NCBI GenBank assembly: GCA_902567135.1
Contig: CACFLO010000001.1
Span: 49,748 to 113,747 of the forward strand
Origin: an uncultured Alphaproteobacteria bacterium
Lineage (GTDB): Bacteria > Pseudomonadota > Alphaproteobacteria > HIMB59 > GCA-002718135
DNA: 64,000 bases
Reading direction: 5' to 3'
Part shown: positions 12,979 through 55,284 of the stretch, piece by piece
Layout of the letters: each line of letters starts with the position of its first letter
Numbering within the stretch: the first letter of the stretch is position 1
The notes under the pieces: model-generated
Databases searched by the model: none
Told to the model about the DNA's origin: nothing
Seen by the model: only the letters and a program-made list of their open reading frames with translations
Translations under genes and position numbers: made by a program

Positions 12979-13548
12979 TTAGAGGTACGAAACTAAACCT
13001 ATTTCTTTTCTAAATCGATCTCTTATTGTAACAGCATTAAGAGGTATTGGTTTTATTGGCACATTTCCTGACTTAATTTTTGATATAATAACATAAGAAT
13101 TATTTTTATCAGCCAGAGCTTTTTGTAAATTTTCATTTGTTTCTTCACCTGAGCATTCAATTACATTTTTGCAACCAGATCCAATAGCAACATTCTTTAA
13201 AGATGTACTTTCATTGGTAAAAGTTTTTTGATCACCTGTTGATCCGTATGAGCCATTATCAACAATAAGAAGTGTATAATTAGATGGAGCTCTATTACCA
13301 ATTGTTGCAAGGGTGTTCATATTCATTAAAACTGATCCATCACCATCAATACTTATAACATTTTTATCAATGGATAATGATAAGCCTAAACCAATTGATG
13401 ATGCTAACCCCATACTACCCAACATATAAAAGTAATTTGGACGGTCATTAATTTTATATAATTCTTGTGAAGGCAAACCAATGTTGCAGATCACAAGTTC
13501 ATTTTCAATTGTTTGTTGCAAAAGATTTAATAATTCAAATCTATTCAT
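12979..13548 (-). CDS. comE: TPP-dependent decarboxylase beta subunit, sulfopyruvate decarboxylase (ComE)-like
   Basis: 189 aa with the TPP-binding motif IDGDGSVLMNMNTLATIGN...LLIVDNGSYGSTG. The split alpha/beta sizes (165 + 189 aa) fit ComD/ComE. A phosphonopyruvate decarboxylase alternative is not excluded. Confidence 0.6.
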   Translation of the reverse strand: MNRFELLNLLQQTIENELVICNIGLPSQELYKINDRPNYFYMLGSMGLASSIGLGLSLSIDKNVISIDGDGSVLMNMNTLATIGNRAPSNYTLLIVDNGSYGSTGDQKTFTNESTSLKNVAIGSGCKNVIECSGEETNENLQKALADKNNSYVIISKIKSGNVPIKPIPLNAVTIRDRFRKEIGLVSYL

Positions 13549-14046
13549 TTAATCATCCTCCATTAAATTAAAATTAAAAAGCACAGCTACAGGACTTTCA
13601 ATTACTTTGGCATGATTAGTAAAAGTTGAAATTTTATCTAAATCTTCTTCAATATTACAATGAAGCATTGGTATTCGAAGTGTGTTAAGAATATCTTCTG
13701 TGACACTTCCCATGCCGCCCTGAGCTCCCACAGGTTCCCCAGGAGTTCCTCGGTAGCTTATTAAGAAAACTACAGGTATTTGATATAATTGAAGAAGAGA
13801 AACTATAGAGTTTACTGAATTGCCAATACCAGTATTCTGCATCATAATACAAGGAAGTTTATTGCCAAGATAAGCTCCAGCGCAAATTCCCATTCCCTCT
13901 TCTTCTCTAGGAATAGCTGAATAATAAATTTCTTTATCATTCTCTAATATAGTGATCATATTAGCTAATAGTTTACATGGAACACTAAGAAAAAAATCAG
14001 CGCCGCCTGATTTTAAATTTGTTATAATCTTTTGGCTAATTTTCAT
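13549..14046 (-). CDS. comD: TPP-dependent decarboxylase alpha subunit, sulfopyruvate decarboxylase (ComD)-like
   Basis: 165 aa pyrimidine-binding domain with the catalytic Glu region PREEEGMGICAGAYLG. Directly abuts the beta subunit gene with no gap. Confidence 0.6.
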   Translation of the reverse strand: MKISQKIITNLKSGGADFFLSVPCKLLANMITILENDKEIYYSAIPREEEGMGICAGAYLGNKLPCIMMQNTGIGNSVNSIVSLLQLYQIPVVFLISYRGTPGEPVGAQGGMGSVTEDILNTLRIPMLHCNIEEDLDKISTFTNHAKVIESPVAVLFNFNLMEDD

Positions 14047-14095
14047 CGTTTTAATTTAATACTAAAATAAAATTATAAAACAAGATTTTGTTTTA

Positions 14096-15145
14096 TTAAA
14101 AATTGTTACGTAATTTAATCTTTATTTTAGATATATAATTGTTATTTTTTCTCAATATTGGAGAAGGAAAATTAGGATGATTAACCGCATCAGGATAATG
14201 TTGAGGCTCTAAACACATGCCATATTGAGGGCCGTATGACTTATTATACTTGCCAATATATTTATCCAACATCATATTGCCTGTATAAAACTGAATACCA
14301 TGTTGATTAGTAAAATATTCAACTCCCATTCCAGTTTTTTTACTATAAATCTTAGCGGCTGACTCTCTCATGGACTGATCTTTTAAAACATAGTTATGAT
14401 CAATTCCTCCAGAATTAAGAAATTCTTTACTTATTAAAAATTTATTCTTTAAATTAAATTTTGTATCTTCAATATTTATAATTTTACCAGTAGGGATAGA
14501 TTGTTCATCAGTCTCACATATCGAATTAGAATTAATATGTACAACATGATCTTCATTGTTTTGATAATGATCTCCGTGACCATGAAAATTCCAATAATTA
14601 TGGTTTGTAAGATTAACTAAAGTATCTTGATCTGAAATGGCTTGAAAATTTATCAAAATTTCGTTGTTATTATTTAATTCATAAATAACTTTACAATCTA
14701 GATTGCCTGGATAGTTTTCTTCCATATCGGGTGAAAGATAACTCATCACACATTTGATAGAATTTGATTTTTCCTCAATATTATCTATTTTCCATATTTT
14801 TTTATTAAAACCAACTTTACCTCCATGGAGATGATTTGGTGGAGTGTTCGGATATAATTGATAATAATTTTTATCTAAAGAGAACTTTGCAGATCCTATT
14901 CTATTTGCTACTCTTCCAATAATAGAATTAAAATAACCGTTTGACTCCAAAACGCCTTCGATATTACCATAGCCTAAAAGAACATCCTCAGTTTTATCTT
15001 CTTGATTCATCATAGGTATATTAACCTCATGAATGTATCCACCATAGGTATAAAATTTAAAGCTAAAATTATTATCGTTATGCACTTCAACTGACTCTAT
15101 ATTTAATTGAGATGGGTTATCTATTTTTTCTACTTTAACTTTCAT
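14096..15145 (-). CDS. Aldose 1-epimerase (mutarotase) family
   Basis: 349 aa with GRVANRI, NHLHGG..GF and LTNHNYWN, typical of GalM-type mutarotases. Confidence 0.75.
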   Translation of the reverse strand: MKVKVEKIDNPSQLNIESVEVHNDNNFSFKFYTYGGYIHEVNIPMMNQEDKTEDVLLGYGNIEGVLESNGYFNSIIGRVANRIGSAKFSLDKNYYQLYPNTPPNHLHGGKVGFNKKIWKIDNIEEKSNSIKCVMSYLSPDMEENYPGNLDCKVIYELNNNNEILINFQAISDQDTLVNLTNHNYWNFHGHGDHYQNNEDHVVHINSNSICETDEQSIPTGKIINIEDTKFNLKNKFLISKEFLNSGGIDHNYVLKDQSMRESAAKIYSKKTGMGVEYFTNQHGIQFYTGNMMLDKYIGKYNKSYGPQYGMCLEPQHYPDAVNHPNFPSPILRKNNNYISKIKIKLRNNF

Positions 15146-16050
15146 TACACTTTTCTATCTCTTGTTTTTGATAAATTATTTTGACGTAAATATATAATTA
15201 TACCTCCAGCAACTATAAATAAAGCACCTGGAAATAATTGATCTACTGGCCACTCTTTAAAGAAAATCCAACCCAAAATTAAAGCAAAAAATATTTCAAT
15301 ATAATCAAAGGGCATAATTTTACTAAGTTCTGCTTTTCTAGAACCATAAATTAATAATAAAACACCTGTTCCACCTGTAAAACCCATTAAAAACAATATA
15401 AACAAATCATATAAACTTTTGAAATTTTCCCACATATTAAATGTAATAACCAAAAGGATTGCACAGATTAAAGTGCCAATATTGGCGTAAAGATTTATTA
15501 ATGGCACGGGGGTATCATTTGAAAAATTTAAGGCTGTTATTCTTGCAAGAGAATAACCAAAAGCAGCCATTACAGGAAGTAACATATAAAAATTAAAGCT
15601 TTCAGACCAAGGTCGCATAATGAATATTATACCCACAAAACCTGTTAATACGGCTAATGTTTTATACCATCCAAATTTTTCACCAAGTAGTGGTATTGCT
15701 AATAATGTAACCATCATTGGTCCTGTGTACTCCATTGTTGCAACTAAAGCATAAGGTAAATAAAGATACGAGGTATATAAACATAGTTGAGCAAAAGACA
15801 TAATTAGGCCCCTTGCTAAACCAAAACGCCATCTTTTTATCACTAATTTTTTTCCACTAGCATGCCAGTCTTGTGAAAAATACAATGCAATAAAACAAGG
15901 TATCATTCCAAACAGATTTCTAAATACTGATAATTGAGCAGCTGGATAATCGTCTCTGAGGTATTTTATTGCAATACCCATACAGTCTAATAAAAATAAT
16001 CCAGATAAGGAAAGCGCAACTGCTATAAATAAATTACTTTTCACCCACAA
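15145..16050 (-). CDS. EamA/DMT-family permease
   Basis: 301 aa, about 10 TM segments. Stop/start overlaps with both neighbours. Confidence 0.7.
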   Translation of the reverse strand: MWVKSNLFIAVALSLSGLFLLDCMGIAIKYLRDDYPAAQLSVFRNLFGMIPCFIALYFSQDWHASGKKLVIKRWRFGLARGLIMSFAQLCLYTSYLYLPYALVATMEYTGPMMVTLLAIPLLGEKFGWYKTLAVLTGFVGIIFIMRPWSESFNFYMLLPVMAAFGYSLARITALNFSNDTPVPLINLYANIGTLICAILLVITFNMWENFKSLYDLFILFLMGFTGGTGVLLLIYGSRKAELSKIMPFDYIEIFFALILGWIFFKEWPVDQLFPGALFIVAGGIIIYLRQNNLSKTRDRKV

Positions 16051-17045
16051 CTAACGCCACATCGATCTACCCAATGATCTGGCTCAACTTCTTCTAATCC
16101 CATCTCAATATTTCCTTCCTTGCCATCTGGTGAAGCGTGAGGGCATCTTGTTCTAAAAACACATCCGGAAGGTGGGTTCATTGCACTAGGTATCTCTCCT
16201 TCAAGCTCAATAGCTTTTGATTTATTTTCAGGATCAATAGACGGAATAGAAGATAGTAATGCTTTTGTATAAGGATGTCTTGGATTTCTAAACAACTCTC
16301 TTGAAGGAGCCATCTCAACAATGTGACCAAGATACATTACAGCAACAATATCACAAACGTGAGCTACAACACTTAAATCATGGCTTATAAATAAATATGT
16401 TAAATTTAACTCATTTTGAAGTTGCTTTAAAAGATTTAATATATCAGCTTGAATTGAGACATCTAATGCAGCAACACTTTCATCCGCTACAATAAATTTT
16501 GGATTACTAACTAGTGCTCTTGCAATTGAAATACGTTGACGCTGACCCCCAGAAAAAGCATGTGGAAATCTTCTTAAGTGTTCAAGATTTAATCTACATT
16601 TGGCTGCAATATCTCGAACTCTCTCATCAGTTTCTTCTCTAGAATTTGTTATCTTCATAACTTCTAAAGGTTCTGCAATTATATCTCTAACAGTCATTCG
16701 AGGACTAAGTGCAGCGTATGGGTCTTGAAAGATAAGTTGTGCTTTTTTTCTATATTCTTTCATTTCCTTTGAATTAATGGTTGTTAAATCAAAATCTCTG
16801 TCATCATCATGAAAAATTACATTTCCAGTACTTATTTTATTTGCACCTAATATTGCTCTTCCAAGTGTAGTTTTTCCAGATCCAGATTCTCCAACAAGAC
16901 CAAAGAAAGATCCTTTTTTAATCTTAATGTTAATATTATTAACAGCTTTTATTTTTTGCTTCTTTGAAAGAAAATTCTCTTGGTAATCAAAAGATACCGA
17001 AAGATTGTTTACTGATACAATATTTTCACTCATGTTTTTCCACAA
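16041..17045 (-). CDS. Peptide/opine-type ABC transporter ATP-binding protein (OppF/DppF-like)
   Basis: Walker A GESGSGKT, signature FSGGQRQR, Walker B FIVADESVAALD. An ATG at 17033 forms an ATGA overlap with the upstream stop and is the likelier start. Cys-rich C-terminal tail. Confidence 0.85.
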   Translation of the reverse strand: MWKNMSENIVSVNNLSVSFDYQENFLSKKQKIKAVNNINIKIKKGSFFGLVGESGSGKTTLGRAILGANKISTGNVIFHDDDRDFDLTTINSKEMKEYRKKAQLIFQDPYAALSPRMTVRDIIAEPLEVMKITNSREETDERVRDIAAKCRLNLEHLRRFPHAFSGGQRQRISIARALVSNPKFIVADESVAALDVSIQADILNLLKQLQNELNLTYLFISHDLSVVAHVCDIVAVMYLGHIVEMAPSRELFRNPRHPYTKALLSSIPSIDPENKSKAIELEGEIPSAMNPPSGCVFRTRCPHASPDGKEGNIEMGLEEVEPDHWVDRCGVSCG

Positions 17046-18016
17046 TCAACACCACATTTATCTAACCAGTGACCTGGTTTAATCTCTACTAAACCCATCT
17101 CAATATTTTCTTCCTTACCTTCCTTTGATGCATGGGGACATCTTGTTCTAAAAACACATCCACTAGGTCTATCTAAAGGACTTGGAATATTGCCTGGAAT
17201 TGGGGTAAGTGCTGCATCTAAATTATTTATATCAGGAAGAGCATTTATTAACCCTTTTGTATAGGGATGCATTGGATTTTTTAAAATTTCATTTACCGGT
17301 CCTTGCTCTACAACACTGCCAAGATACATAACTGCAACATCATCTGCTACTTGAGCAATAACACCAAGATCATGAGTGATAAATATTACACCCATATTGT
17401 ATTCTTTAATAATATCTTTCATTAAATTTATTACCTGTGCTTGAATAGTTACATCTAACGCTGTTGTAGGCTCATCAGCTAACAATAGTTTAGGCATTGT
17501 TGATAAAGCCATAGCAATCATTGCGCGTTGCCTCATTCCTCCAGAGAGCTCAAAAGCATATTGATTAAATCGCTTTTCAGCATCTGCTATCCCTACCCTA
17601 TTTAACATATCTATTGATATATTTTTTGCTTCCTTTTTATCCATTGGTTTATGAATCATAAGTTGCTCAACCATTTGGTAACCAATTTTAATTGCTGGGG
17701 CAAAACTAGCCATTGGTTCTTGAAAAATCATTGAAACTTTTCCACCTCTAATTTTTTTTAAATCATTTTTTGATGTAAATTTTAAAACATTTTCGTCATC
17801 AATTATTATTTCTGCATTATCATTATATATTGTATTTCCTGGATTGAGTTGCATGATAGATTTTGCTGTAACGGATTTACCAGATCCTGACTCACCAACA
17901 ATACCTAAAACCTTTCCTTGATCCAATGTTAAAGAAACATTATCAATTGCTGTTATTCGACCTTCATCAGTATCAAACTTTACATCAAGATTATTTATTT
18001 CTAAAAGATGAGTCAT
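17030..18016 (-). CDS. Peptide/opine-type ABC transporter ATP-binding protein (OppD/DppD-like)
   Basis: Walker A GESGSGKS, signature LSGGMRQR, Walker B LLLADEPTTALD. The C-terminal tail is nearly identical to that of the next ATPase. Confidence 0.85.
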   Translation of the reverse strand: MTHLLEINNLDVKFDTDEGRITAIDNVSLTLDQGKVLGIVGESGSGKSVTAKSIMQLNPGNTIYNDNAEIIIDDENVLKFTSKNDLKKIRGGKVSMIFQEPMASFAPAIKIGYQMVEQLMIHKPMDKKEAKNISIDMLNRVGIADAEKRFNQYAFELSGGMRQRAMIAMALSTMPKLLLADEPTTALDVTIQAQVINLMKDIIKEYNMGVIFITHDLGVIAQVADDVAVMYLGSVVEQGPVNEILKNPMHPYTKGLINALPDINNLDAALTPIPGNIPSPLDRPSGCVFRTRCPHASKEGKEENIEMGLVEIKPGHWLDKCGVDCGKT

Positions 18017-18022
18017 AGAATA

Positions 18023-19186
18023 TTAATTTTTTGTTTTGTGTGGATCTGCAGCGTCTCGAAGACCATCTCCGACATACACAAATGTTAAAATTAAAACAAC
18101 TAAGAAAAAGACAGGTATAAAATACCATTGATAGTTTAGTAAAACATCTGCCTTTGTTGCATTTTGTAAAAGTACACCCAATGAATTTACAGGTTCTCTT
18201 AAACCTAAGCCTATAAAACTTAGAGCAGTTTCAGATAACAACATGTAAGGAAAGCTGATAACCAGATCAACAATTATGTAGCTTGTAAAACTTGGTAAAA
18301 GATGTCTGATAATTATATGGGTTGATGAAGCTCCACACATTTTAGCTGCAAGAATATATTCTTGACTTCTTTCACTTAATAAATGAGTTCGAACACGTCT
18401 TGCCAAAGTTGGCCAAGATATCAAACCTAATAAACAGGATATAAAGAAAAACCTGAGTTCTGAACTCCATTCAAGGGGTGCAAAAGCGGCAAGACACATA
18501 AATAAAGGTATGGGTGGAACTGTTCGAATAGCATCTGTAAACATTTGCAATAAACTATCAATCCAGCCGCCATAATATCCAGAGATACCTCCAATAATTA
18601 ATGACAAAACGAAAGAGATAAACACTCCCAGTGTTCCAACAGCTAATGAAATATATATTGCACTTAAGGTTCTACTAAATAAATCTTTTCCTGCTTTATC
18701 AGTTCCAAATAGATGAATTCCACCTTCCTCCACACCAAATAAATGCGTATCAAATGTTAGTCCTGGAATTGTAAAATCTAATGCCTTACCTGGAAGATTA
18801 ATACTATAATTAAAATATTTATATTCCCAACCTTTAACAAAAAAATAAACATAGCGTCTTTTTTCAGTATCTGTTTTATAAACCCATCTGAAATTTGTAT
18901 CAGCTCCTCTATACTTTGTTAGAGTATGTAAAAAAGGTCTAGGAGAAAAACCGTTTTCATCCCAAAACATTGGAATTTGTGGAGCACCGTTTTCATAATT
19001 TTTATCACGACCTGCAATTGTAGGATCATATGGAGATAAAAACCCAGAAAAAAGACTGCAAACTATCATAAATAACAAGATAGATCCTGCTATCATCGCT
19101 GAACGGTTTCCAAAGAAACGCGTTCTTACTAATTGCATTTGAGTAGCAGTATAGTACGCTTCTTTCTTTTTTATACTAACTTCCAC
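18023..19186 (-). CDS. ABC transporter permease (OppC/DppC-like)
   Basis: 387 aa with multiple TMs and the EAA-loop region ILAAKMCGASSTHIIIRHLLPSF. Long periplasmic loop after TM1. Confidence 0.8.
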   Translation of the reverse strand: MEVSIKKKEAYYTATQMQLVRTRFFGNRSAMIAGSILLFMIVCSLFSGFLSPYDPTIAGRDKNYENGAPQIPMFWDENGFSPRPFLHTLTKYRGADTNFRWVYKTDTEKRRYVYFFVKGWEYKYFNYSINLPGKALDFTIPGLTFDTHLFGVEEGGIHLFGTDKAGKDLFSRTLSAIYISLAVGTLGVFISFVLSLIIGGISGYYGGWIDSLLQMFTDAIRTVPPIPLFMCLAAFAPLEWSSELRFFFISCLLGLISWPTLARRVRTHLLSERSQEYILAAKMCGASSTHIIIRHLLPSFTSYIIVDLVISFPYMLLSETALSFIGLGLREPVNSLGVLLQNATKADVLLNYQWYFIPVFFLVVLILTFVYVGDGLRDAADPHKTKN

Positions 19187-20189
19187 CCATGACTCCTTTT
19201 CTAATTCTTGGATCCATTATTGCTAATAATATATCGGTGACAAAATTTACAAAAACGATTGTTGCAGTTAATAAAAATATAATTGCACCTGCTAATTGTT
19301 GATCATTAGATCTAGCTAGAGCCTCAATCAATAATGCACCAGCTTCAGTTAAGATTAAAATCAATGCAACCACTGGTAGTGCACTAAAAATTCTATTTAA
19401 ATCAAAACCGATCGAATTAATAACTGGTCCAAGTGAGTGCTTTGCTGGATAACGCCATAATAGACTCATACCTGATATCCCTCTAGCTCTTGCAGCCATA
19501 ACATAAAGTTTATCATTTTCATCTAACATTAATGCTCTAACGGTTTGAAGTGCAAAAGCAGTAGCATTCCATCCAAGAACAAAGATTGGTAACCAAGCTC
19601 TAGCAAGAAAATCTTTTAATTTATCAGCGGACCAAGGGGCATTTTCATATTCTTGAGAAAATAAACCTGTCATCGTATCTCCATAATACACTGTCATAAA
19701 AAGCATAATACAAAGTGCTACTAAAAAATTTGGTAAAGCTATTCCAAGATAGCTAATAAATTTCAGAGACTGATCTAAAGAGACATATTTTGTCGTGGCG
19801 GAAATAATACCAACTGGTATTGCTATTAAATACGAAAAAATTAAAGCTACTAAACATATAGTAAGTGAAAGCACAAACCTCCCACTAAGAAGATCATTAA
19901 TATTCATACGAAGAATACAACTATCTCCGAAATCTTGTTTAACTGCAATATCAGATACCCATTTTCCAAACCGATATAAAAAAGGCTTATCTAAACCAAG
20001 TCGCACTTTTTCTGCCTCAATATCCTCAAAGGTAATTTGCGAACCTTGAGTGTTTTTAAAAGCAAGATATCGTTCCGCACAAGTTCCTGGGACTAACTCC
20101 ATCAAAGAGAAAACAATAAAACAAACTATGAGTAATGTTACTATCGATAAAAATGCTCTAGTAATTGTAAACTGTATAAAATTAATCAT
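19176..20189 (-). CDS. ABC transporter permease (OppB/DppB-like)
   Basis: 337 aa with the EAA loop MAARARGISGMSLLWRYPAKHSLGPV. Confidence 0.8.
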   Translation of the reverse strand: MINFIQFTITRAFLSIVTLLIVCFIVFSLMELVPGTCAERYLAFKNTQGSQITFEDIEAEKVRLGLDKPFLYRFGKWVSDIAVKQDFGDSCILRMNINDLLSGRFVLSLTICLVALIFSYLIAIPVGIISATTKYVSLDQSLKFISYLGIALPNFLVALCIMLFMTVYYGDTMTGLFSQEYENAPWSADKLKDFLARAWLPIFVLGWNATAFALQTVRALMLDENDKLYVMAARARGISGMSLLWRYPAKHSLGPVINSIGFDLNRIFSALPVVALILILTEAGALLIEALARSNDQQLAGAIIFLLTATIVFVNFVTDILLAIMDPRIRKGVMGGS

Positions 20190-20225
20190 TATTTAATTTT
20201 TATTAATTGATATCCAAGACTAATT

Positions 20226-20262
20226 AGAAAAAATAAAAGCGGCAATAAAAAATTGCCGCTTT
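20226..20262 (-). terminator. Intra-operon stem-loop/terminator between the binding-protein gene and the permease genes
   Basis: 11-bp perfect stem aaagcggcaat (20236-20246) / attgccgcttt (20252-20262) with a 5-nt loop. On the minus strand it is followed by TATTTTTTC. Confidence 0.55.
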
Positions 20263-20284
20263 TTAAAGAATTTATTACTTTACC

Positions 20285-24485: not shown

Positions 24486-24490
24486 TAACA

Positions 24491-25594: not shown

Positions 25595-25596
25595 AA

Positions 25597-36538: not shown

Positions 36539-36550
36539 AAAATTAACAAT

Positions 36551-37681: not shown

Positions 37682-37694
37682 TGTTTATCTATCC

Positions 37695-38666: not shown

Positions 38667-38670
38667 TAAA

Positions 38671-39642: not shown

Positions 39643-39661
39643 TTTAAGAAAAATTATATTT

Positions 39662-39699: not shown

Positions 39700-39750
39700 A
39701 ATCAATTTAATATTTTGTCTAAATTGTGAGTAACTGAAATATAAAGAATT

Positions 39751-40842: not shown

Positions 40843-40903
40843 CAGATTTAATAGATACTATCAGTTAATTATATATACAAAGTAAATTAATTAAGAGAAA
40901 AAA

Positions 40904-46376: not shown

Positions 46377-46713
46377 AAAATCCGATCAAGAAATTTTAGA
46401 TATAGCAAATCCTCTTTGGGATAATCTTGTAAATAGCTCAAATAAAAAAGACTATTTTGAATTTATAAAAGATTTTTCTGCCAAAATGCTATTTGGTGCT
46501 AATGAAGTAGAAATTGGGAAGCAGTGGGCAAGTAATAAATTGCTTACTAGCTTGGATGAAAATAAAATTTTTTTAGGATGTTTACGCAGGGATGAATTTG
46601 TTACTGTTTTATTTAAACAAAAAAGTAATCAGGTTTCTGGAGATTTTTTAGGCAGACTAGTGCTTGGCATTGAAGATGAACAAATTAAAATATTTGGTGC
46701 AACTATTTTTTAA
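46345..46713 (+). CDS. Hypothetical protein translationally coupled to aprA
   Basis: 122 aa (116 aa if started at the ATG at 46363). Overlaps the aprA 3' end and the cysQ stop. No recognisable motif. Confidence 0.45.
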   Translation: MMKKKKMNLLEKSDQEILDIANPLWDNLVNSSNKKDYFEFIKDFSAKMLFGANEVEIGKQWASNKLLTSLDENKIFLGCLRRDEFVTVLFKQKSNQVSGDFLGRLVLGIEDEQIKIFGATIF

Positions 46714-47546: not shown

Positions 47547-48746
47547 ATGGAAAAAGAAATTTATAAACTCATAGATAAGGAAAAGCTACGTGTTGTTAGT
47601 GAAAATATAGATAAAGCGCACGGTCTTCCCAATGAATGTTATTTAAATGGACCTTATAGTAAAATTGAACGTAAAAAAATCTTTGAAGAAAAGTGGGTTA
47701 CAATAGGCGTTGCAAGTTCAGTCCCTAATCCAGGAGATGTTAAACCTTTTGATCTACTTGGTATTCCACTAATCATAGTTAGGGATAAACAAAAAAAAAT
47801 TAGAGTTTTTCATAATGTTTGTAGTCACCGAGGATATAAGTTAGTTAATAAAACTTGTGCTATAAAAAATATATTAAGATGTCCTTATCACTCATGGTCA
47901 TATGACTTGGAAGGAAATTTGATTGCCACCCCTCATTTAGGTGGAATAAATAAACATGAGCATCAGGATTTTGATAAATCCAAAAGTGGATTAAAAGAAG
48001 TGCGATCATCTGTTTGGCTCGACTTAATCATGGTAAATATTTCAGGCAATGAATTACCTTTTGAAAAATATATAGAACCGCTTGAAAATAGATGGTCTGA
48101 CTTTTGGACAAAACAAGATCAAGAAATGATCTGTCATGCTCAAGATTATGGATATTTCAAATTAGAAGCAAAATGTAATTGGAAATTTGCAATAGAAAAC
48201 TATTGTGAAAGTTATCACTTACCTTTCGTACATCCTGGTCTAAATGCCTATTCAAAAATTGATGATCATTATCATATACAAGGATTACCTAATCGTTTTG
48301 CTGGACAAGGCACACTTGTGTATAATCCTAGATTTGAAAATAATGAAAAATTCCCAAGATTCCCTGGATGGAGAAAGGAGAAAGAAGAACATGCTGAATA
48401 CGTCGCTCTATTTCCAAACGTAATGCTTGGTATTCACAAAGACCATTATTATGCTTATTGGTTAGAGCCTGTTGAACATAATTTTACTAAAGAACATATG
48501 GAAATCTATTATGTCGGTGAAGATGCTGCTCTTGATGATTCATATAAATCATTAAGAAAACAAAATTATGAACAATGGCATAGCATTCAAACTGAAGATT
48601 TAAATATTATTGAAGGTATGCAGGAAGGAAGAAATTCACCTGTTTACAATGGTGGTAATTTTTCTCCAGTTCTTGATAATCCTACTCACCATTTTAATAA
48701 GTGGGTAGCCACTTCATTGACCGATAATGATTTTTCAAAAAATTAA
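47547..48746 (+). CDS. Rieske [2Fe-2S] non-haem iron oxygenase, alpha-subunit type
   Basis: Rieske motif CSHRGYKLV-x-CPYHSWSY and a mononuclear iron region NYCESYHLPFVHP. Confidence 0.8.
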   Translation: MEKEIYKLIDKEKLRVVSENIDKAHGLPNECYLNGPYSKIERKKIFEEKWVTIGVASSVPNPGDVKPFDLLGIPLIIVRDKQKKIRVFHNVCSHRGYKLVNKTCAIKNILRCPYHSWSYDLEGNLIATPHLGGINKHEHQDFDKSKSGLKEVRSSVWLDLIMVNISGNELPFEKYIEPLENRWSDFWTKQDQEMICHAQDYGYFKLEAKCNWKFAIENYCESYHLPFVHPGLNAYSKIDDHYHIQGLPNRFAGQGTLVYNPRFENNEKFPRFPGWRKEKEEHAEYVALFPNVMLGIHKDHYYAYWLEPVEHNFTKEHMEIYYVGEDAALDDSYKSLRKQNYEQWHSIQTEDLNIIEGMQEGRNSPVYNGGNFSPVLDNPTHHFNKWVATSLTDNDFSKN

Positions 48747-48757
48747 ATAATAATTAT

Positions 48758-50800
48758 ATGACAGACTCATTACTTCAATCATTTAAATTGAAACATTTGA
48801 ATCTAAAAAATCGAATTATTACTACAAGTCATGAACCAGCCTATAATGAGGATGGATTTCCAAAAGATAGATATGTAGCCTATCATTTAGAGAGAGCAAA
48901 AGGAGGCATAGCTATGACTATGACTGCAGGATCAACTGTAGTTTCAAAAGATAGCCCTCCTTCATTTGACAATATTCATGCCTACAAAGATGAAGTTGTT
49001 CCTTGGATTAAAAAACTTACTGAAGCTATTCATGATCAGGATTGTAAAATTATGATTCAGTTAACACATCTTGGAAGAAGAACTTCTTGGAATAAAGGTG
49101 ATTGGCTTCCATCTATTTCATCAGGAAAACACCGGGAACCTGCGCATAAAGCATTTCCAAAAGTTGCTGAGAGCTGGGACATTGAAAGAATCATTAAAGA
49201 ATATGGTGATGCTGCTGAGAGAATGAAACAAGGTGGTATGGACGGTGTTGAACTTGAAGGTCAAGGTCATTTAATTGGTCAATTTCTCTCCCCTTTAACG
49301 AATGAATTAGAAACAGAATATGGTGGTAGTTTAGAAAATAGATTACGTTTTACACTTGATGTTCTTTCAGACATTAGAAGCAAAGTCGGTCAAAAATTTA
49401 TTGTAGGAATCCGTTGTGTCTTTGATGAAGTGGAAAAAGGAGGAATAACTAAATCAGATGGATTAAAAATTGCAAAAATCTTATCTGGTTCAGGTTTAAT
49501 AGATTATTTAAACATCAATAGAGGCAGAATACATACTGATCCAATACTAACTAAACATATTCCCATTCAAGGAATGAAAAGTGCTCCGCATCTCGAATTT
49601 GCAGGAGAAATAAAAAAAGAAGTAAATTTACCAATTTTTCATGCATCTAAAATTTCTGATGTAGCAACTGCTAGGTATGCAATTTCAAATGGATTGGTTG
49701 ATATGATAGGTATGACAAGAGGTCATTTAGCAGACCCGCATATTGTAAAAAAAATAAAAGAAAAAAGAGAAGATGATATTAGACCTTGTGTTGGGGCTAC
49801 TTATTGTTTGGACAGAATTTATCAAGGTGAGGAGGCTCTTTGTATTCATAATGCGGCAACAGGAAGAGAATTAAAATTTCCAAATATTATTAGTAAATCA
49901 AAAATAAAAAAGAAAATTGTTGTAGTTGGTGCTGGGCCTGGAGGACTTGAAGCGGCAAGAATAGCAGCAGAAAGAGGTCATGAGGTTATAGTTTTTGAAG
50001 CAGCACCTGATCCTGGAGGACAAGTTAGATTATGCGCAAAATCTACAAGAAGAAAAGATATGATGGGTATTATTGATTGGAGAATGCAGCAATGCATAAA
50101 GAAAAATGTTAAATTCAATTTTAATATTATTGCTGAAGCTCAAGATTTGATTAATGAAAACCCTGACACTATAATCATTGCGACAGGAGGTATGCCAAAC
50201 CTCGAACTTTTTGAAACAAAAAAAGATTTAGAAAATGTTTTTACAAGCTGGGATATAATTTCAGGGGACGTCAAGTTAGCTGAAAATATATTAATCTATG
50301 ATGAGGCAGGTGATCATACAGCTATGCAATCAGCAGAAATAGCTATAGAGAAAGGGTCAACTGTTGAATTTATGACACCAGATAGGTTAATTTCTTCTGA
50401 AATAATGGGGATGAATTTAACTCCTTATTTAAAAAATCTTCAAAATAAAAAAATAACATATTCCATTGCTAAAAGATTGATAGATGTATCAATAAAAGGA
50501 AACAAATTAAATGCTACAATTGGTTCTGATTATGATGAAAATTTTAAAAACAACTCTATTTACGATCAAATTTTTTTAAACTACGGAGTAAAACCTTTAG
50601 ACGAATTATATTTTAATCTTGTATCTTTTTCCAAAAATGAAGGTGAAGTGAACTACACTAAATTTATAAAAGGTGAGATACAAAATATTATTAAAAATAA
50701 AAATAACAAATTTAATCTATATAGAATAGGAGATGCTGTTTCTTCTAGAAATATCCATGCAGCTATTTATGATGCTTTAAGATTAGTAATAAATTTATAA
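48758..50800 (+). CDS. OYE-like FMN oxidoreductase fused to an FAD/NAD(P)-binding domain (N-methylproline demethylase / 2,4-dienoyl-CoA reductase / amine dehydrogenase family)
   Basis: 680 aa. N-terminal TIM-barrel OYE pattern (LKNRIITTSHEP.., IQLTHLGRR), a Cys-rich linker RPCVGATYC..ALC where family members bind an Fe-S cluster, then VVVGAGPGGLEAA. Confidence 0.8.
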   Translation: MTDSLLQSFKLKHLNLKNRIITTSHEPAYNEDGFPKDRYVAYHLERAKGGIAMTMTAGSTVVSKDSPPSFDNIHAYKDEVVPWIKKLTEAIHDQDCKIMIQLTHLGRRTSWNKGDWLPSISSGKHREPAHKAFPKVAESWDIERIIKEYGDAAERMKQGGMDGVELEGQGHLIGQFLSPLTNELETEYGGSLENRLRFTLDVLSDIRSKVGQKFIVGIRCVFDEVEKGGITKSDGLKIAKILSGSGLIDYLNINRGRIHTDPILTKHIPIQGMKSAPHLEFAGEIKKEVNLPIFHASKISDVATARYAISNGLVDMIGMTRGHLADPHIVKKIKEKREDDIRPCVGATYCLDRIYQGEEALCIHNAATGRELKFPNIISKSKIKKKIVVVGAGPGGLEAARIAAERGHEVIVFEAAPDPGGQVRLCAKSTRRKDMMGIIDWRMQQCIKKNVKFNFNIIAEAQDLINENPDTIIIATGGMPNLELFETKKDLENVFTSWDIISGDVKLAENILIYDEAGDHTAMQSAEIAIEKGSTVEFMTPDRLISSEIMGMNLTPYLKNLQNKKITYSIAKRLIDVSIKGNKLNATIGSDYDENFKNNSIYDQIFLNYGVKPLDELYFNLVSFSKNEGEVNYTKFIKGEIQNIIKNKNNKFNLYRIGDAVSSRNIHAAIYDALRLVINL

Positions 50801-50806
50801 ATACAA

Positions 50807-52081
50807 TTAAACCAAATCAAGAGGTATTGAAGATAACAATTCCAGCCCCTTTTCAGTAACTAAATATTGATCTTCTAATTTTGCCCCTTCATTTGCTCCG
50901 ACCTCCCCAATATAGCTTTCAACACACACCACCATATTTTCTTGAAAAATTCCACTATAATCCCCATTACTATAATCTGCATTCGGATAGCCAATATACG
51001 GCCATTCATCACTCATTCCAACACCATGTATTTGACATGGATAATGATTATCAAAACAATTGTCTGGAAGTTGCCAAGCTTTTTCTGCAAATTCTCTGAA
51101 AGATAATCCAGGCTTAATTAATTGCTCATTGTATTTTACATTTTCATAAGCCAAGCTATGAATTTTATTTTGATAATTGCTTAATTTTTTTCCTTCTACA
51201 AATGTTCTTGAAATATCAGCACAATATCCATAAGGCCCAACCATATCTGTATCAAAAGCAACGAGTTCACCTTCTTCGATAATTCTATTACTGCACTCTT
51301 GAAACCAGGGATTGGTTTTTGGACCTGAATTTAATAATCTTGTTTCAAACCACTCACCTCCATTTTCAATGTTTGTTTTATGTAAAATTGACCACAATTC
51401 TTCTTCTGTCATGCCAGCTTTTAAATTTTCATGCATAAGTAAAATACCTTTCTCAGCTGTTTTAATTGAAGCTTTCATACATATAATTTCATCTTGGGAC
51501 TTTATGGATCTTGCAATTTCCATAAATTTTTGAGCGTTAATTATGTCGTATTCATAATTATTATTTAAAGCATTGATACCGGCTGGATCACAAACATCGA
51601 TAATAAGTTTTTTATTTTCAGAACTATATTGCTTCATTAGGTCATCTATTACCTTTGACCATTCAAGAGCTTTATCATAAACATTATTTCCCCAAGTAAA
51701 ATGATCCCAACTGATCACTTCTCTTACTTCATCGATGGTACAATTATTCTCGTAAATATGTTCACAATTTGGGTATTCAAATAATATTACTGGTCCATTG
51801 GCAGGAATAAAAACGTATCGCGTCATCAGATGAAAAGAAAATACTGACATATTTCTTGTATCCGTAGCATAACGAATATTTATCGGATCAAATAAGATAC
51901 ATGCACCTATTTCATTTTGTTGTAATTGATCTCTTACTCTATTTAATCGATACATTCGCATACGATCAAAATTAATTTTATCTTCATAAAGTTTTGGTTT
52001 GAAACTGTTGTTTACAACAGAATCTTTTTCCCCAAACTTCGGACCAATTTTTCTATTGATATTTTTTGTATTAAAATTCAT
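50807..52081 (-). CDS. M24-family (creatinase/prolidase-fold) metallohydrolase
   Basis: 424 aa. Creatinase-type N-domain (ILFDPINIRYATDTRN) and a pita-bread domain with ligand-like residues (FDTDMVGPYGYCADISRTF, HGVG, VESY, KLEDQ). Confidence 0.75.
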   Translation of the reverse strand: MNFNTKNINRKIGPKFGEKDSVVNNSFKPKLYEDKINFDRMRMYRLNRVRDQLQQNEIGACILFDPINIRYATDTRNMSVFSFHLMTRYVFIPANGPVILFEYPNCEHIYENNCTIDEVREVISWDHFTWGNNVYDKALEWSKVIDDLMKQYSSENKKLIIDVCDPAGINALNNNYEYDIINAQKFMEIARSIKSQDEIICMKASIKTAEKGILLMHENLKAGMTEEELWSILHKTNIENGGEWFETRLLNSGPKTNPWFQECSNRIIEEGELVAFDTDMVGPYGYCADISRTFVEGKKLSNYQNKIHSLAYENVKYNEQLIKPGLSFREFAEKAWQLPDNCFDNHYPCQIHGVGMSDEWPYIGYPNADYSNGDYSGIFQENMVVCVESYIGEVGANEGAKLEDQYLVTEKGLELLSSIPLDLV

Positions 52082-52127
52082 TTTATAATAATATACAACA
52101 TACTTATAAATAAAAACAGGGGAAGAT

Positions 52128-52505
52128 ATGGATGAAGAATTATTTAAAAAAGGTTTAGAAAAAAGAAAAGCTACCTTAGGTAAAGAATATGTTGAAAAAA
52201 ATTTAGAACAAGCTGATGATTTTACCCTGCCTTTTCAAAAGGCTATGACTGAATGGTGTTGGGGTTTTGGTTGGGGAGATGAAGTAATTGATATGAAAAC
52301 TCGATCAATGATGAACCTATCAATGATTGGGGCTTTAGGTAAAATGCAAGAATGGGAAATTCATTGCAGAGGAGCAATAACGAATGGAGTATCTAAAGAA
52401 GAAATAAGGGCTATTATTCATGTTATAGGAATTTATTGTGGTGTACCTCAGGCGTTAGAGTGTTTTAAAGTGGCAAAAAAAGTGTTTGGAGAAAAAAATC
52501 TTTAA
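52128..52505 (+). CDS. Carboxymuconolactone decarboxylase (CMD/AhpD-like) family protein
   Basis: 125 aa. WGDEVIDMKTRSMMNLSMIGALGKMQEWEIHCRGAITNGVSKEEIRAIIHVIGIYCGVPQA fits the PcaC-type CMD pattern. Confidence 0.7.
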   Translation: MDEELFKKGLEKRKATLGKEYVEKNLEQADDFTLPFQKAMTEWCWGFGWGDEVIDMKTRSMMNLSMIGALGKMQEWEIHCRGAITNGVSKEEIRAIIHVIGIYCGVPQALECFKVAKKVFGEKNL

Positions 52506-52513
52506 ATTGATTT

Positions 52514-53434
52514 TTAACTATAAATATAAAAAATATAACTAATGTATAATAGTAAACTTATAGATCCATAGGTTCTTCCAATTCTTTTTAAAAAAAACAT
52601 AAATCCTAAGATCATCAAAGTTACAAATAACATAAATAGTAAATCCTCAGAACCTATTACTGCTGGTATGCTAAAGTTGCCAAAAAAAGAAGAAATACCT
52701 AATACACCCAAGATATTATATATATTTGATCCCAAAACATTACCAAGAGCAAAATCAACTTTACGTCTAATTGCTGATAAAATTCCAACTACAAGCTCAG
52801 GAAGTGAAGTACCAAATGCAACTAATGATACACCTATTACAGCTTCTGGAATATTTAATTCATTTGCAATATTAATTGCCGATTTAACAAAAAGATCTGA
52901 TCCGTAAATAAGCAATAATATTCCAACTAAAATAAATATTATTGATATGATAAGAGAATAATCTCCTTTTTCGTTAACATCAGAAACATCAAGTGAGCCC
53001 TGTTTCACTTGCATGTACATTATAAAAAATAATAGACAAACAGATAAAATGCCAAAAAGAAAATTAAAAGGTAAAATAAAAAAACTCATAGTTATTAAAA
53101 CTAAAGCTAAGAAAATGTTTATCCAAGCTTGGTTAATTTGATTTTGGTTAATATTACTAATAGGAATTAAAAAAGATGTTGCGGCCATAACAAGTATTAA
53201 ATTAGCAATATTGCTTCCAATAACAGCGCCAACAGCTAAATCAGCATGATTTTTAACTACAGCATTAATACTACTTGCTAATTCTGGTAAAGATGTTCCT
53301 CCAGCAATAATAACTACGCCTATAGCAAATAGTGAAACTTTTAATTTTTTGCCAAAACTTATCGAACCTCTAATAATTAACTCAGCACCTAAAACAAGCA
53401 GGCCTAAACCTATAAACAAAAATATTAAATTCAC
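52514..53434 (-). CDS. Ca2+/Na+ (cation) antiporter, CaCA family
   Basis: 306 aa, about 10 TMs, with the duplicated alpha-repeat motifs GTSLPELASS and GTSLPELVVG. Confidence 0.8.
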   Translation of the reverse strand: MNLIFLFIGLGLLVLGAELIIRGSISFGKKLKVSLFAIGVVIIAGGTSLPELASSINAVVKNHADLAVGAVIGSNIANLILVMAATSFLIPISNINQNQINQAWINIFLALVLITMSFFILPFNFLFGILSVCLLFFIMYMQVKQGSLDVSDVNEKGDYSLIISIIFILVGILLLIYGSDLFVKSAINIANELNIPEAVIGVSLVAFGTSLPELVVGILSAIRRKVDFALGNVLGSNIYNILGVLGISSFFGNFSIPAVIGSEDLLFMLFVTLMILGFMFFLKRIGRTYGSISLLLYISYIFYIYS

Positions 53435-53508
53435 ATGTTCTTATTAATTTATTTTATAAAAAAAGATATAAGCAAAGACTAATCAATGATTATTGCAAAT
53501 CAATAAGT

Positions 53509-55284
53509 TTATTGAACGACAGTATCCTGACTATTAATGCCCGCTACTTCAACTGGTGCTTTCATTGCATCTCTCCTAAATGGCTCACCAAGTTCTTGAT
53601 TTAGAATGACTTCGATAAAAGTTGTAATACCATTCATTTGATCAACACATGATGCTTTAAGAGCTTCTGTTAACTCTGATTGAGTTGTAACTTTAACACC
53701 TTTAAAGCCGCATGCTTCTGCAATTTTTGCATAACTTAATTTTGGATCAAGTTCTGTTCCAATAAAGTTGTTATCGTACCAAAGGGTGGTATTTCTTTTC
53801 TCTGCTCCCCATTGATAATTTCGAAATATAACCATTGTAATATTTGGCCACTCTTCTCGACTACATGAAGTCATCTCACTCATACTAATTCCAAAAGCAC
53901 CATCGCCAGAAAAACCTACAACTGGTGTATTAGGACAACCAATTTTTGCACCTAAAACAGATGGAAAACCATAACCGCATGGTCCAAATAAACCTGGAGC
54001 TAAGTATTTTCTTCCTTTTTCAAAAGTAGGATAAGCATTACCAATTGCACAGTTATTACCAATATCACTTGAAATTATAGCATCATCGGGTAAGCCTGCT
54101 TGAATAGCTCTCCAAGCCATACGTGGTGACATTCTATCAGGATCTCTCTCCCTTGAATCTTTATTCCATGTTGTGCCTTCATCATCTTCTTCATGATCTA
54201 AACTTGTTAGTGTTTGAAGCCATGCTGATTTAGTCTGATGTATTAATGCTTTTCTATCTTCTCTTCCACTATCTCCTGCAGTTGAAGATAATTGACTTAG
54301 AATTTGTTGAGCAACAAGCTTAGCATCACCACAAATTCCTACTGATATTTTTTTTGCTAAACCAATTCTATCAGAGTTAAAATCAACTTGAATTATTTTT
54401 GCCTCTTTTGGCCAGTAATCAATTCCATAACCAGGTAGTGTTGAAAAAGGATTTAATCTTGTTCCAAGTGCTAGTACTACATCGGCCTTGGAAATAATTT
54501 CCATTGCTGCTTTAGATCCGTTGTATCCAAGTGGGCCAATCGCAAGTGGATGTTTTCCTGGAAAACTATCGTTGTGTTGATATCCACAAGCTACAGGAGC
54601 ATCTAATTTTTCAGCAATTTTTTTACAATCTCCAATAGCATCAGCAAGAACTACACCTGCTCCAGATAATATTACTGGAAATTTTGCATTTGATAAAAGT
54701 TTTGCAGCCTCAGTAATTGCTGCAGCTCCTCCAGATGGTCTTTCAAATTCAATAATAGAGGGTAATTCAATATCAACAACCTGGGTCCAGAAATCTCGTG
54801 GAACATTTATTTGCGCTGGGGCTGATCCTCTTTTAGCTTTTAATATTACTCTATTTAACACTTCTGCCATTCTAGACGCATCACGAACTTCTTCTTGATA
54901 ACACACCATATCTTTAAATAAATTCATTTGCTCTACTTCTTGAAAACCACCTTGACCCATTGTTTTATTTGCTGCTTGAGGAGTAACTAAAAGCATCGGT
55001 GTGTGATTCCAATAAGCTGTTTTTATTGGTGTTACTAATCCAGTTATACCTGGTCCATTTTGTGCAATACACATAGCAATTTTACCAGTTGATCTTGTAT
55101 AGCCATCTGCGATTAAACCACCATTTGACTCATGTGCTACATCCCAAAAAGTAATACCAGCTTTTGGAAAAAGATCTGAAATTGGCATAAAAGCTGATCC
55201 TATTATTCCAAAAGAATGTTGTATTCCATGCATTTGTAAAACTTTTACAAAAGCTTCCTCAGTAGTCATTTTAGCCATCTTCAC
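53509..55284 (-). CDS. xsc: Sulfoacetaldehyde acetyltransferase (TPP enzyme)
   Basis: 591 aa. N-terminus TTEEAFVKVLQMHGIQHSFGIIGSAFMPISDLFPKAGITFWD..AQNGPGITG..AYWNHTPMLLVTPQA and TPP motif GDGAFGISMSEM, as I remember them for Xsc. Context includes pta and the aminotransferase. Confidence 0.8.
   Translation of the reverse strand: MKMAKMTTEEAFVKVLQMHGIQHSFGIIGSAFMPISDLFPKAGITFWDVAHESNGGLIADGYTRSTGKIAMCIAQNGPGITGLVTPIKTAYWNHTPMLLVTPQAANKTMGQGGFQEVEQMNLFKDMVCYQEEVRDASRMAEVLNRVILKAKRGSAPAQINVPRDFWTQVVDIELPSIIEFERPSGGAAAITEAAKLLSNAKFPVILSGAGVVLADAIGDCKKIAEKLDAPVACGYQHNDSFPGKHPLAIGPLGYNGSKAAMEIISKADVVLALGTRLNPFSTLPGYGIDYWPKEAKIIQVDFNSDRIGLAKKISVGICGDAKLVAQQILSQLSSTAGDSGREDRKALIHQTKSAWLQTLTSLDHEEDDEGTTWNKDSRERDPDRMSPRMAWRAIQAGLPDDAIISSDIGNNCAIGNAYPTFEKGRKYLAPGLFGPCGYGFPSVLGAKIGCPNTPVVGFSGDGAFGISMSEMTSCSREEWPNITMVIFRNYQWGAEKRNTTLWYDNNFIGTELDPKLSYAKIAEACGFKGVKVTTQSELTEALKASCVDQMNGITTFIEVILNQELGEPFRRDAMKAPVEVAGINSQDTVVQ

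Follow-up and report, generated by a model that had tools for sequence, protein, structure and literature searches.

Organosulfonate genes of the window

We analysed a 64,000-nucleotide stretch of DNA from an uncultured alphaproteobacterium (contig CACFLO010000001.1, positions 49,748 to 113,747; hereafter, the window), in which genes for the catabolism of C2 and C3 organosulfonates are gathered between positions 12979 and 55284. Gene families were judged by profile scores against curated cut-offs (NCBIfam/TIGR, Pfam) and by solved relatives in the Protein Data Bank (PDB). The list of open reading frames (ORFs) was checked and holds every gene named in an initial annotation of this DNA, each at its given position. 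The clustering described in that annotation is real: sulfoacetaldehyde acetyltransferase (Xsc), the adenosine 5'-phosphosulfate (APS) reductase AprB/AprA with AprM, CysQ, alanine dehydrogenase (Ald), HpsN and ComDE are borne out by curated models or solved structures. The principal genes are as follows.

12979-13548, minus strand: ComE (TIGR03846, 221.6 bits vs cut-off 221.5, a borderline pass)
13549-14046, minus strand: ComD (TIGR03845, 157.3 bits vs cut-off 147.95)
26585-27700, minus strand: Ald (495.5 bits vs cut-off 391.9)
27700-29040, minus strand: class III omega-amino-acid:pyruvate aminotransferase, "Tpa" by context (AptA omega-aminotransferase model, 583.7 bits vs cut-off 500)
29173-30084, plus strand: Pta-type phosphate acyltransferase (PTA_PTB family; NF006045, 294 bits vs cut-off 282)
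40904-42190, plus strand: HpsN, a HisD-family dehydrogenase (520.7 bits to solved HpsN 8v35 and 511 to 8wwe, vs 245.9 to the best HisD)
42192-42593, minus strand: u133, a minimal HxGH/ISxTxxR adenylyltransferase of ~130 residues
42586-43080, minus strand: kin164, an APS-kinase-like P-loop kinase
43213-44007, plus strand: AprM, a multi-pass membrane protein of 264 aa with ~5 hydrophobic segments, 40 bp before aprB (no family model)
44047-44517, plus strand: AprB (194.8 bits vs cut-off 135.65)
44517-46376, plus strand: AprA (990.6 bits vs cut-off 641.75)
46363-46713, plus strand: NTF2-like small ORF after aprA (no Pfam family; confident NTF2/SnoaL-like fold)
46710-47498, minus strand: CysQ, 3'(2'),5'-bisphosphate nucleotidase (TIGR01331, 287.4 bits vs cut-off 228.8)
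53509-55284, minus strand: Xsc (TIGR03457, 941.5 bits vs cut-off 676.4)

The G+C content of the window is ~30%, and its AprA is 100% identical to that on one 2-kb contig of a single-amplified genome. The 80 AprA relatives compared all come from Pelagibacteraceae records (nearly all named Pelagibacteraceae or Pelagibacter) and share 89-92% identity with the window protein, so by this measure the window comes from the chromosome of a Pelagibacteraceae (SAR11) lineage that is roughly equidistant from the sampled species.

The apr and xsc genes compared with the canonical SAR11 locus

Both APS reductase subunits passed the TIGR02060/TIGR02061 searches and a membrane-integral aprM lies directly upstream, as in the sulfur-oxidiser lineage I enzymes, for which AprM has been described, Pelagibacter included (PMC2211403, PMC3779200). 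We compared 80 AprA loci from 80 SAR11 species representatives (loci carry an L and a number), of which 65 had enough downstream DNA and 66 were scored upstream of aprM. Across 73 SAR11 loci AprM shows 63-73% identity; the small ORF that follows aprA is kept in 78 of the 80 and has ~7,900 metagenomic homologues, and the string aprM-aprB-aprA-small ORF recurs in 73-78 of the 80; the small ORF presumably belongs to the apr operon. The thiamine pyrophosphate-dependent enzyme at 53509 is indeed Xsc and not an acetolactate synthase, the best model for the latter reaching 298 bits, below its own cut-off.

The canonical SAR11 order (Pelagibacter Ia-type) is HIT-aprM-aprB-aprA-small ORF-tauE-(yeiH-type exporter)-suyB-suyA<->xsc. 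Directly upstream of aprM, 57 of 66 loci have a HIT-domain gene; Xsc is found 2.7-7.6 kb downstream of aprA in 63 of 65, and of the genes in the interval between them TauE occurs in 64, SuyA and SuyB in 63, and a YeiH-type protein of the "sulfate exporter family" (PF03601) in 39. The window resembles this locus in its aprMBA genes with the NTF2-like ORF, in an xsc within a few kb, and in the published role of AprBA, the removal of sulfite released from organosulfur breakdown in SAR11 (PMC12636525, PMC5069961). It differs in that Xsc, 7.1 kb from aprA, is inverted, that kin164 and u133 stand upstream of aprM, and that SuyA/B, TauE, the YeiH-type exporter and the HIT gene gave no tblastn match; here and below, absences refer to the 64-kb window, the rest of the genome lying outside the comparison. 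TauE and SuyAB, which count as missing from the window, are exactly the genes that canonical SAR11 keeps between aprA and xsc.

Between CysQ and Xsc (47547-53434) the window carries a weakly GbcA-like Rieske oxygenase, an old yellow enzyme (OYE)/Fe-S flavoprotein of 680 aa, an M24 hydrolase that resembles DddP below the cut-off (358 vs 600), a carboxymuconolactone-decarboxylase-family protein and a Ca/Na antiporter; the content of this interval varies between lineages (L081 vs L084). CysQ itself adjoins apr in L081 and u133 in L084 and L085. Other SAR11 loci have ~30-35% "CysQ" matches 8 kb upstream of aprM; these are paralogues and not the CysQ of the window.

The SAR11 HIT protein, of 132 aa (e.g. 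L063:8193-8591), may be an APS hydrolase or phosphorylase; its gene lies between tauE and suyB, instead of upstream of aprM, in two loci, one of them L074. Most SAR11 also have PabA-like (GATase) and PabC-like (class IV aminotransferase) genes upstream of aprM (L063:6899-8189), and in a minority this place is taken by a 223-aa PqqC/CADD-like protein (L069:7555-8226, L004:7894-8565), which may be a non-orthologous swap for p-aminobenzoate synthesis. In a MED-G108 metagenome-assembled genome the gene after Xsc (L004:18471-19283) looks by eye like a rhodopsin-type seven-helix membrane protein.

A kinase/adenylyltransferase pair beside aprM

SAR11 genomes are without sat and cysDN (PMC5069961), and in Allochromatium vinosum sat lies immediately upstream of aprMBA in one operon (PMC3779200). 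In the window, the genes kin164 and u133 share 8 nt, and a 132-bp gap separates the pair from the divergently oriented aprM. The only significant solved relative of kin164 is an APS kinase (PDB 2yvu, E=1.5e-5), and the protein keeps the P-loop, D-x-x-R, F-(S/E)-...-R, (S/D)F-x-x-P and R-x-x-x-x-R-R motifs; its best profile match is PRK05541 (26 bits vs cut-off 127). u133 carries the motifs GRWQPWHDGH and ISATNIR. Its only Pfam match is CTP_transf_like (E=0.004), NCBIfam returned models of the nicotinamide mononucleotide adenylyltransferase (NMNAT) type, and a confident AlphaFold2 (AF2) model (pLDDT 86) shows a HUP-class fold with weak neighbours at TM ~0.5, namely NadM/NMNAT, HldC, phosphopantetheine adenylyltransferase (PPAT) and PanC. 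An exhaustive profile-free search puts the family at 1,057 cluster representatives (~1,000 clusters at 50% identity), and the only annotations its members now bear are "adenylyl-sulfate kinase" or "cytidyltransferase".

About 25 of the best 150 family representatives are fusions of an N-terminal kinase with a C-terminal u133 domain. In one of them, P0257, u133 is joined to a canonical CysC (TIGR00455, 233.6 bits); this fusion is present on 4 contigs from several samples, and the gene context of P0257 and of P0124 could be followed on short contigs only. Five genomes with a fusion were examined, and in three of them (Inquilinus limosus, Microvirga massiliensis and a third genome) a sulfotransferase of the PAPS type (PAPS, 3'-phosphoadenosine 5'-phosphosulfate) lies within a few genes of it, directly adjacent in two. 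Within SAR11, u133 homologues stand directly upstream of aprM and on the same strand in 4 species (L069, L074, L078 and L080) and follow CysQ in another lineage (L084, L085).

Since Allochromatium has sat in the slot beside aprM and SAR11 lacks sat and cysDN, we infer, with the fusions and the gene context, that this slot would hold an APS-converting enzyme, which would be Sat in Chromatiaceae, in most SAR11 the HIT protein, and in the window u133, alone or with kin164. The likeness to the Allochromatium sat-aprMBA locus (PMC3779200) lies in a lineage I AprBA with its AprM anchor and a putative APS-converting gene immediately beside aprM; the difference is that Sat is missing and that the SAR11 slot is filled by HIT (57/66 loci), by a u133-like gene (4 loci) or by the divergent kin164-u133 pair (the window and near relatives). 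As in PAPS synthase and NodPQ-type systems, kinase and adenylyltransferase are paired or fused, with the kinase N-terminal as in metazoan PAPSS and with sulfotransferases and CysQ nearby. Unlike those systems, the 130-residue HxGH domain of u133 is unrelated in sequence to Sat or CysD, and kin164 is without the CysC lid.

The pair is put forward as a candidate for handling APS or PAPS. We hold it possible, at somewhat less than an even chance, that u133 is a third type of sulfate adenylyltransferase which, with its kinase partner, separate or fused, would make up either a PAPS synthase of compact size or a module that consumes APS, in place of Sat beside aprMBA in SAR11 lineages. u133 would then catalyse APS + PPi (pyrophosphate) <-> ATP + sulfate, kin164 would act as an APS 3'-kinase yielding PAPS, and the two would stand in for the canonical SAR11 HIT gene and the Allochromatium sat beside aprM. 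If true, such an enzyme would explain the turnover of APS from sulfonate-derived sulfite in cells without sat or cysDN.

A number of observations speak against this assignment. kin164 fails the CysC model TIGR00455 (15.6 bits vs 138.7), and its canonical C-terminal lid motifs are replaced. u133 shows no similarity to the Sat family and does not group with Sat or CysD; its nearest relatives, archaeal-type NMNAT, PPAT and HldC, are weak ones (E ~0.05 in sequence, TM ~0.5 in fold). Two of the five fusion contexts have no sulfur link, L074 and one other locus have both HIT and a u133-like gene, so that replacement is not strict, and phage homologues of kinase-u133 sit among nucleotide-metabolism genes.

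The pair could alternatively serve NAD salvage in the manner of NadR (ribosylnicotinamide kinase plus NMNAT), or be of the PPAT/dephospho-CoA-kinase type, its position next to aprM being accidental. We consider this unlikely. It would account for the fact that the only detectable relatives of u133 are archaeal or NadM-type NMNATs, which share even the GRxQPxHxGH motif, for human Nrk1 among the weak kinase matches, and for the phage copies near MazG and other nucleotide-metabolism genes. However, the kinase is far closer to APS kinase than to nicotinamide riboside kinase (E=1.5e-5 vs 0.09) and keeps D-x-x-R, F-S and R-x-x-x-x-R-R, while u133 falls well short of the archaeal-type NMNAT models (22.3 bits vs 181.2 for TIGR01527, 29.5 vs 127 for PRK01153). 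The bona fide CysC in one natural fusion, the sulfotransferases near the fusion in three of five genomes, and a link to aprM or CysQ that persists through three distinct gene arrangements likewise argue for APS/PAPS handling. The earlier suggestion that a kinase/nucleotidyltransferase pair fills the ATP-sulfurylase gap thereby gains real but indirect support, from the fusions, the sulfotransferase neighbours and the aprM slot; the activity itself is predicted. The open-access literature, the only literature covered, yielded no description of a kinase-adenylyltransferase fusion as a sulfurylase, which is not proof of novelty.

Phages carry such fusions as well: Xylella phage Sano (L177, 15406-16143) and 11 other phage records, from siphophages of Xylella, Xanthomonas, Stenotrophomonas and Clavibacter. 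These are annotated as "kinase" or "adenylylsulfate kinase" and lie among early genes that include a MazG-like pyrophosphatase and a protein annotated as cysteine dioxygenase.

The aminotransferase operon and Pta

Two further genes belong to this part of the window.

25597-26574, minus strand: guanidino-acid ureohydrolase in the same operon as Ald (PDB 3nip, 3-guanidinopropionase, 131 bits)
30084-30986, plus strand: drug/metabolite transporter (DMT) permease, its start overlapping the Pta stop (NCBIfam)

The initial annotation had named a Tpa-like aminotransferase with Ald, and a Pta. Ald and Pta stand; the "Tpa" is a class III aminotransferase closest to AptA and the beta-alanine:pyruvate enzymes, with beta-alanine:pyruvate transaminase 4b98 as its best solved relative (390 bits), and no Tpa-specific model appeared in its family-search output. 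Specificity for taurine is predicted from the context of Ald, Pta and Xsc. The guanidino-acid hydrolase, omitted from the initial annotation, could act on taurocyamine or guanidinopropionate; the 3-guanidinopropionase enzyme family also accepts taurocyamine (EC 3.5.3.17).

The aminotransferase-Ald-ureohydrolase operon is also present in the nearest relatives, L081 and L082. The Pta-DMT pair is divergent from it, and the divergent aminotransferase/Pta pairing recurs in L081, L082 and L085. In L081 and L082 the aminotransferase/Pta module is contiguous with kin164-u133/aprMBA-CysQ, in the order OppA-PHP-MetE-like-ureohydrolase-Ald-aminotransferase <-> Pta-DMT-(DMT)-u133-kin164 <-> aprMBA-small ORF-CysQ-Rieske-OYE. 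Compared by blastn with these two loci, the window has two insertions, one of which (24487-25596) carries an alanine racemase; the other, larger one holds HpsN.

The ComDE operon and its relatives

ComE and ComD together make up a two-subunit sulfopyruvate decarboxylase by family models, both being above cut-off. The genes around them are as follows.

11940-12950, minus strand: aldo-keto reductase (AKR), the last gene after ComE (weak YdjG-like similarity, 107 bits vs cut-off 550)
14096-15145, minus strand: GalM-like aldose-1-epimerase beside ComD (TIGR02636, 255 bits, below cut-off)
15145-22345, minus strand: DMT permease (15145-16050) and an Opp/Dpp-type ABC importer, OppF, OppD, OppC, OppB and a 686-aa binding protein (NCBIfam, ORF coordinates)
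22463-23371, minus strand: PHP/CehA-McbA metallohydrolase at the head of the Opp-ComDE gene string (NF038032, 86.7 bits vs cut-off 80)

The DMT and Opp/Dpp genes are co-directional with ComDE, with overlaps or short gaps. A metagenome scan for ComE returned 80 marine contigs at 78-99% identity, and the order Opp-type ABC-DMT-GalM-ComD-ComE is kept in dozens of them; the Opp/Dpp-DMT synteny with ComDE extends over L095-L170, and the GalM-like gene is syntenic with ComD in most loci. The metallohydrolase gene is also conserved in L081. A role of the GalM-like protein as a sulfoquinovose mutarotase is possible; such a specificity could not be shown, its best solved relative being the ordinary galactose mutarotase of humans (1snz).

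Most of the ComE contigs have a long form of the cluster: a PfkB kinase and a D-2-hydroxyacid dehydrogenase come after ComE, and a Gfo/Idh/MocA oxidoreductase, a FucI-like isomerase and a DeoC/LacD aldolase lie on the opposite strand. Examples are L113:435-6328 and L165:2116-12598, with others among L103-L173, and some add a sugar ABC system and a GH31 gene. In E. coli the sulfofructose kinase is a PfkB-family enzyme and the aldolase a DeoC/LacD-family one. The mutarotase-like gene, PfkB, the DeoC/LacD aldolase and the pairing of ComDE with the 2-hydroxyacid dehydrogenase suggest the hypothesis that the long form encodes a route similar to sulfo-EMP (EMP, Embden-Meyerhof-Parnas), running from sulfolactaldehyde through sulfolactate and sulfopyruvate to sulfoacetaldehyde. 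It is held at that strength because the GH31 beside ComD in L165 is not a YihQ-type sulfoquinovosidase and is closer to alpha-glucosidases.

In the short form, ComE is followed by SpeB; it is found in the window, L095 (96.5% nucleotide identity), L098, L137, L141, L151 and L166, and persists over a range of 80-99% identity. In the window the mutarotase-like gene alone represents the sulfo-EMP set, the isomerase being absent and the 2-hydroxyacid dehydrogenase, PfkB kinase, aldolase and GH31 giving no tblastn match in the 64 kb. The D-2-hydroxyacid dehydrogenase of the relatives is most likely the missing sulfolactate dehydrogenase, deleted in the lineage of the window. The AKR, proposed earlier for that step, is a poor candidate: it lies between ComE and SpeB only in the closest relatives of the window (L095 and L098 among the ComE loci), is absent from most ComDE loci and is not a conserved operon member. 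The window's second ureohydrolase, an agmatinase at 10990-11928, passes TIGR01230 (190 vs cut-off 174).

That "ComDE" is instead a phosphonopyruvate decarboxylase of phosphonate biosynthesis, or decarboxylates a non-sulfonated 2-oxo acid derived from a sugar, appears highly improbable. The borderline ComE score could be taken that way, as could the name of the nearest solved protein (putative phosphonopyruvate decarboxylase beta subunit) and the GH31 of L165. Both subunits nevertheless clearly fail the phosphonopyruvate decarboxylase model TIGR03297 (128.3 and 100.8 bits vs cut-off 312.5); neither the window nor any of the 80 related ComE loci examined shows a phosphoenolpyruvate mutase; and the genes that accompany ComDE in relatives (PfkB, DeoC/LacD aldolase, mutarotase, 2-hydroxyacid dehydrogenase) are consistent with a sulfo-EMP route that leads to sulfolactate.

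HpsN in an 11.2-kb insertion

The blastn breakpoints against L081 and L082 define an 11.2-kb insertion in the window that is absent from both, with the following content (Pfam, NCBIfam).

30988-42177: short-chain dehydrogenase/reductase (SDR), sugar-type ABC permeases and binding protein, LacI, MetE-like, SnoaL, cupin, SnoaL, HpsN

By this comparison HpsN is strain-specific in the window, because it lies inside an insertion that the nearest relatives lack. This agrees with the published picture, according to which SAR11 hps homologues do not form a cluster and the HpsN of SAR11 has weak kinetics (PMC11131964). The sulfolactate-to-sulfopyruvate enzyme and sulfolactate lyase are not encoded in the window, and DHPS (2,3-dihydroxypropane-1-sulfonate) oxidised by HpsN has no visible downstream route within it. 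HpsN, on its insertion, and ComDE, in its truncated operon, are probably not parts of one pathway in this genome.

Of the 80 SAR11 loci, 23 (among L006-L074) carry a homologue of the SDR at the edge of the insertion (31351-32118), with 63-68% identity and located a few kb downstream of Xsc; this SDR could correspond to the HpsO-like enzyme that has been assayed in SAR11. Also within the insertion (36551-40842), a MetE-like-SnoaL-cupin string lies on the minus strand, and a second, two-domain SnoaL protein is found just upstream of HpsN. The window has two short MetE-like genes (23433-24485 and 36551-37681), both with the C-terminal domain only (Meth_synt_2) and far below methionine synthase cut-offs; one is conserved beside the PHP hydrolase and the other lies inside the insertion.

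One island or a mosaic of modules

The chance of six independent loci falling within 3% of a ~1.35-Mb genome is ~2e-7, an approximate value for which independence is assumed and the genome size is a guess; stronger evidence against random clustering is the conserved linkage in related genomes. That linkage does not extend to a single conserved island, for which the initial annotation had called for a comparative check: the genes form a mosaic of separately conserved modules plus the HpsN insertion.

The extreme form of this view is that the window is a flexible SAR11 region in which unrelated catabolic modules have piled up and only apr and xsc are truly linked. The aminotransferase operon would then serve beta-alanine or 3-guanidinopropionate, ComDE would be the remnant of a larger sugar cluster, and HpsN a promiscuous HisD-like enzyme. 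The absence of the insertion from L081 and L082, the lineage-dependent CysQ-Xsc interval, the best relatives of the aminotransferase and the ureohydrolase (beta-alanine:pyruvate transaminase and 3-guanidinopropionase), the deletion of the PfkB/2-hydroxyacid dehydrogenase/Gfo/isomerase/aldolase half of the ComDE cluster, and the poor kinetics of SAR11 HpsN are all in keeping with it. We nonetheless judge it rather unlikely, as the divergent Pta/aminotransferase pairing is kept in three lineages, and it is Xsc that calls for a following Pta, beta-alanine catabolism needing none; the short form of ComDE is maintained at 80-99% identity and so is not a product of recent decay; and in relatives the aminotransferase/Pta module abuts the apr module.

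A probable convergent route for C2 and C3 sulfonates

We favour, with moderate confidence, a reading in which several separately inherited C2/C3 sulfonate modules lie side by side and converge on sulfoacetaldehyde and sulfite, with kin164/u133 handling APS. By family assignment, ComDE would convert sulfopyruvate to sulfoacetaldehyde and HpsN would oxidise R-DHPS to sulfolactate. The aminotransferase with Ald would produce sulfoacetaldehyde from taurine, its presumed substrate, and the co-operonic ureohydrolase could feed it from taurocyamine. Xsc would cleave sulfoacetaldehyde to acetyl-phosphate and sulfite, Pta would turn acetyl-phosphate into acetyl-CoA, and AprM-anchored AprBA would convert sulfite and AMP to APS, passing electrons to the membrane. 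CysQ, by its family a PAP (3'-phosphoadenosine 5'-phosphate) or PAPS hydrolase, would recycle PAP, and the DMT permeases, importers or exporters, may be carriers in place of TauE.

Further points count against this scheme: the assayed SAR11 HpsN has a very high Km (~106 mM) for DHPS (PMC11131964), the aminotransferase is by sequence closest to beta-alanine:pyruvate enzymes, and the "missing" genes may lie elsewhere in the genome. As for the links drawn in the initial annotation, convergence on sulfoacetaldehyde, its passage through Xsc and Pta, and that of sulfite to APS hold, a route already published for SAR11 (PMC12636525, PMC5069961, PMC11131964), and the link from DHPS through sulfolactate to ComDE is not encoded in the window. 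A sulfolactate dehydrogenase, TauE, Sat and a dedicated regulator are all missing from the window, as that annotation had noted; both ABC systems that it placed among these genes are confirmed, and two of its three DMT genes (15145-16050 and 30084-30986) lie within 12979-55284, the third, at 2589-3512, being outside. No Rfam family reached its gathering score anywhere in the window (1-64000), so no known riboswitch controls these operons. The sole regulators seen in the window are LacI (35537-36538), MarR (59453-59938) and an OmpR/EnvZ-like pair (59941-61916).

The sulfolactate route of Roseovarius nubinhibens, reportedly described by Denger et al. in 2009, is said to run through SlcD, ComDE, Xsc and Pta. 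The window likewise has ComDE, Xsc and Pta to take sulfopyruvate to acetyl-CoA and sulfite; it differs in that no SlcD/ComC/SlcC-type dehydrogenase was found in it and in that its sulfite would go to AprBA, not to a sulfite dehydrogenase. With the taurine transamination of Rhodobacteraceae and Paracoccus (Tpa-Ald-Xsc-Pta) it shares a class III pyruvate-dependent aminotransferase with Ald, an adjoining Pta and an Xsc in the neighbourhood, whereas the aminotransferase is AptA-type, TauABC, TauR and TauE are absent, and a guanidino-acid hydrolase belongs to the operon. Finally, its HpsN is an orthologue of that in the HpsNOP-SuyAB DHPS pathway of Cupriavidus pinatubonensis and Ruegeria pomeroyi (520 bits to solved CpHpsN). 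Unlike in that pathway, HpsN is found with SnoaL, cupin and a LacI-regulated sugar-type ABC system, and there is no HpsO/HpsP operon, TRAP transporter HpsKLM or SuyAB.

Implications for sulfonate metabolism in SAR11

Among heterotrophs of the surface ocean SAR11 is the most abundant, and for taurine, DHPS and sulfonates related to them it is a major sink. Taken as a whole, the pathway was already known in SAR11; the novelty lies in a variant architecture, in which ComDE is found in place of SuyAB, TauE and HIT are lacking, and HpsN comes on an insertion. The kin164/u133 candidate enzyme pair, as predicted here, is also new. The comparison defines a canonical SAR11 sulfite locus, HIT-aprMBA-tauE-suyAB-xsc, from which the lineage of the window has exchanged SuyAB for ComDE and HIT for the kinase/adenylyltransferase pair. 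ComDE is also shown inside a sulfoglycolysis-like cluster in related marine contigs, and this long form is worth attention because a 2026 review casts Pelagibacter as only a secondary degrader of short sulfonates (PMC13436972). The fate of SAR11 sulfite beyond APS has been left open, owing to the absence of sat (PMC5069961; PMC12636525). The kin164/u133 pair, widespread beside sulfotransferases in other Alphaproteobacteria, is a testable candidate for a new sulfate-activating or APS-cleaving enzyme.

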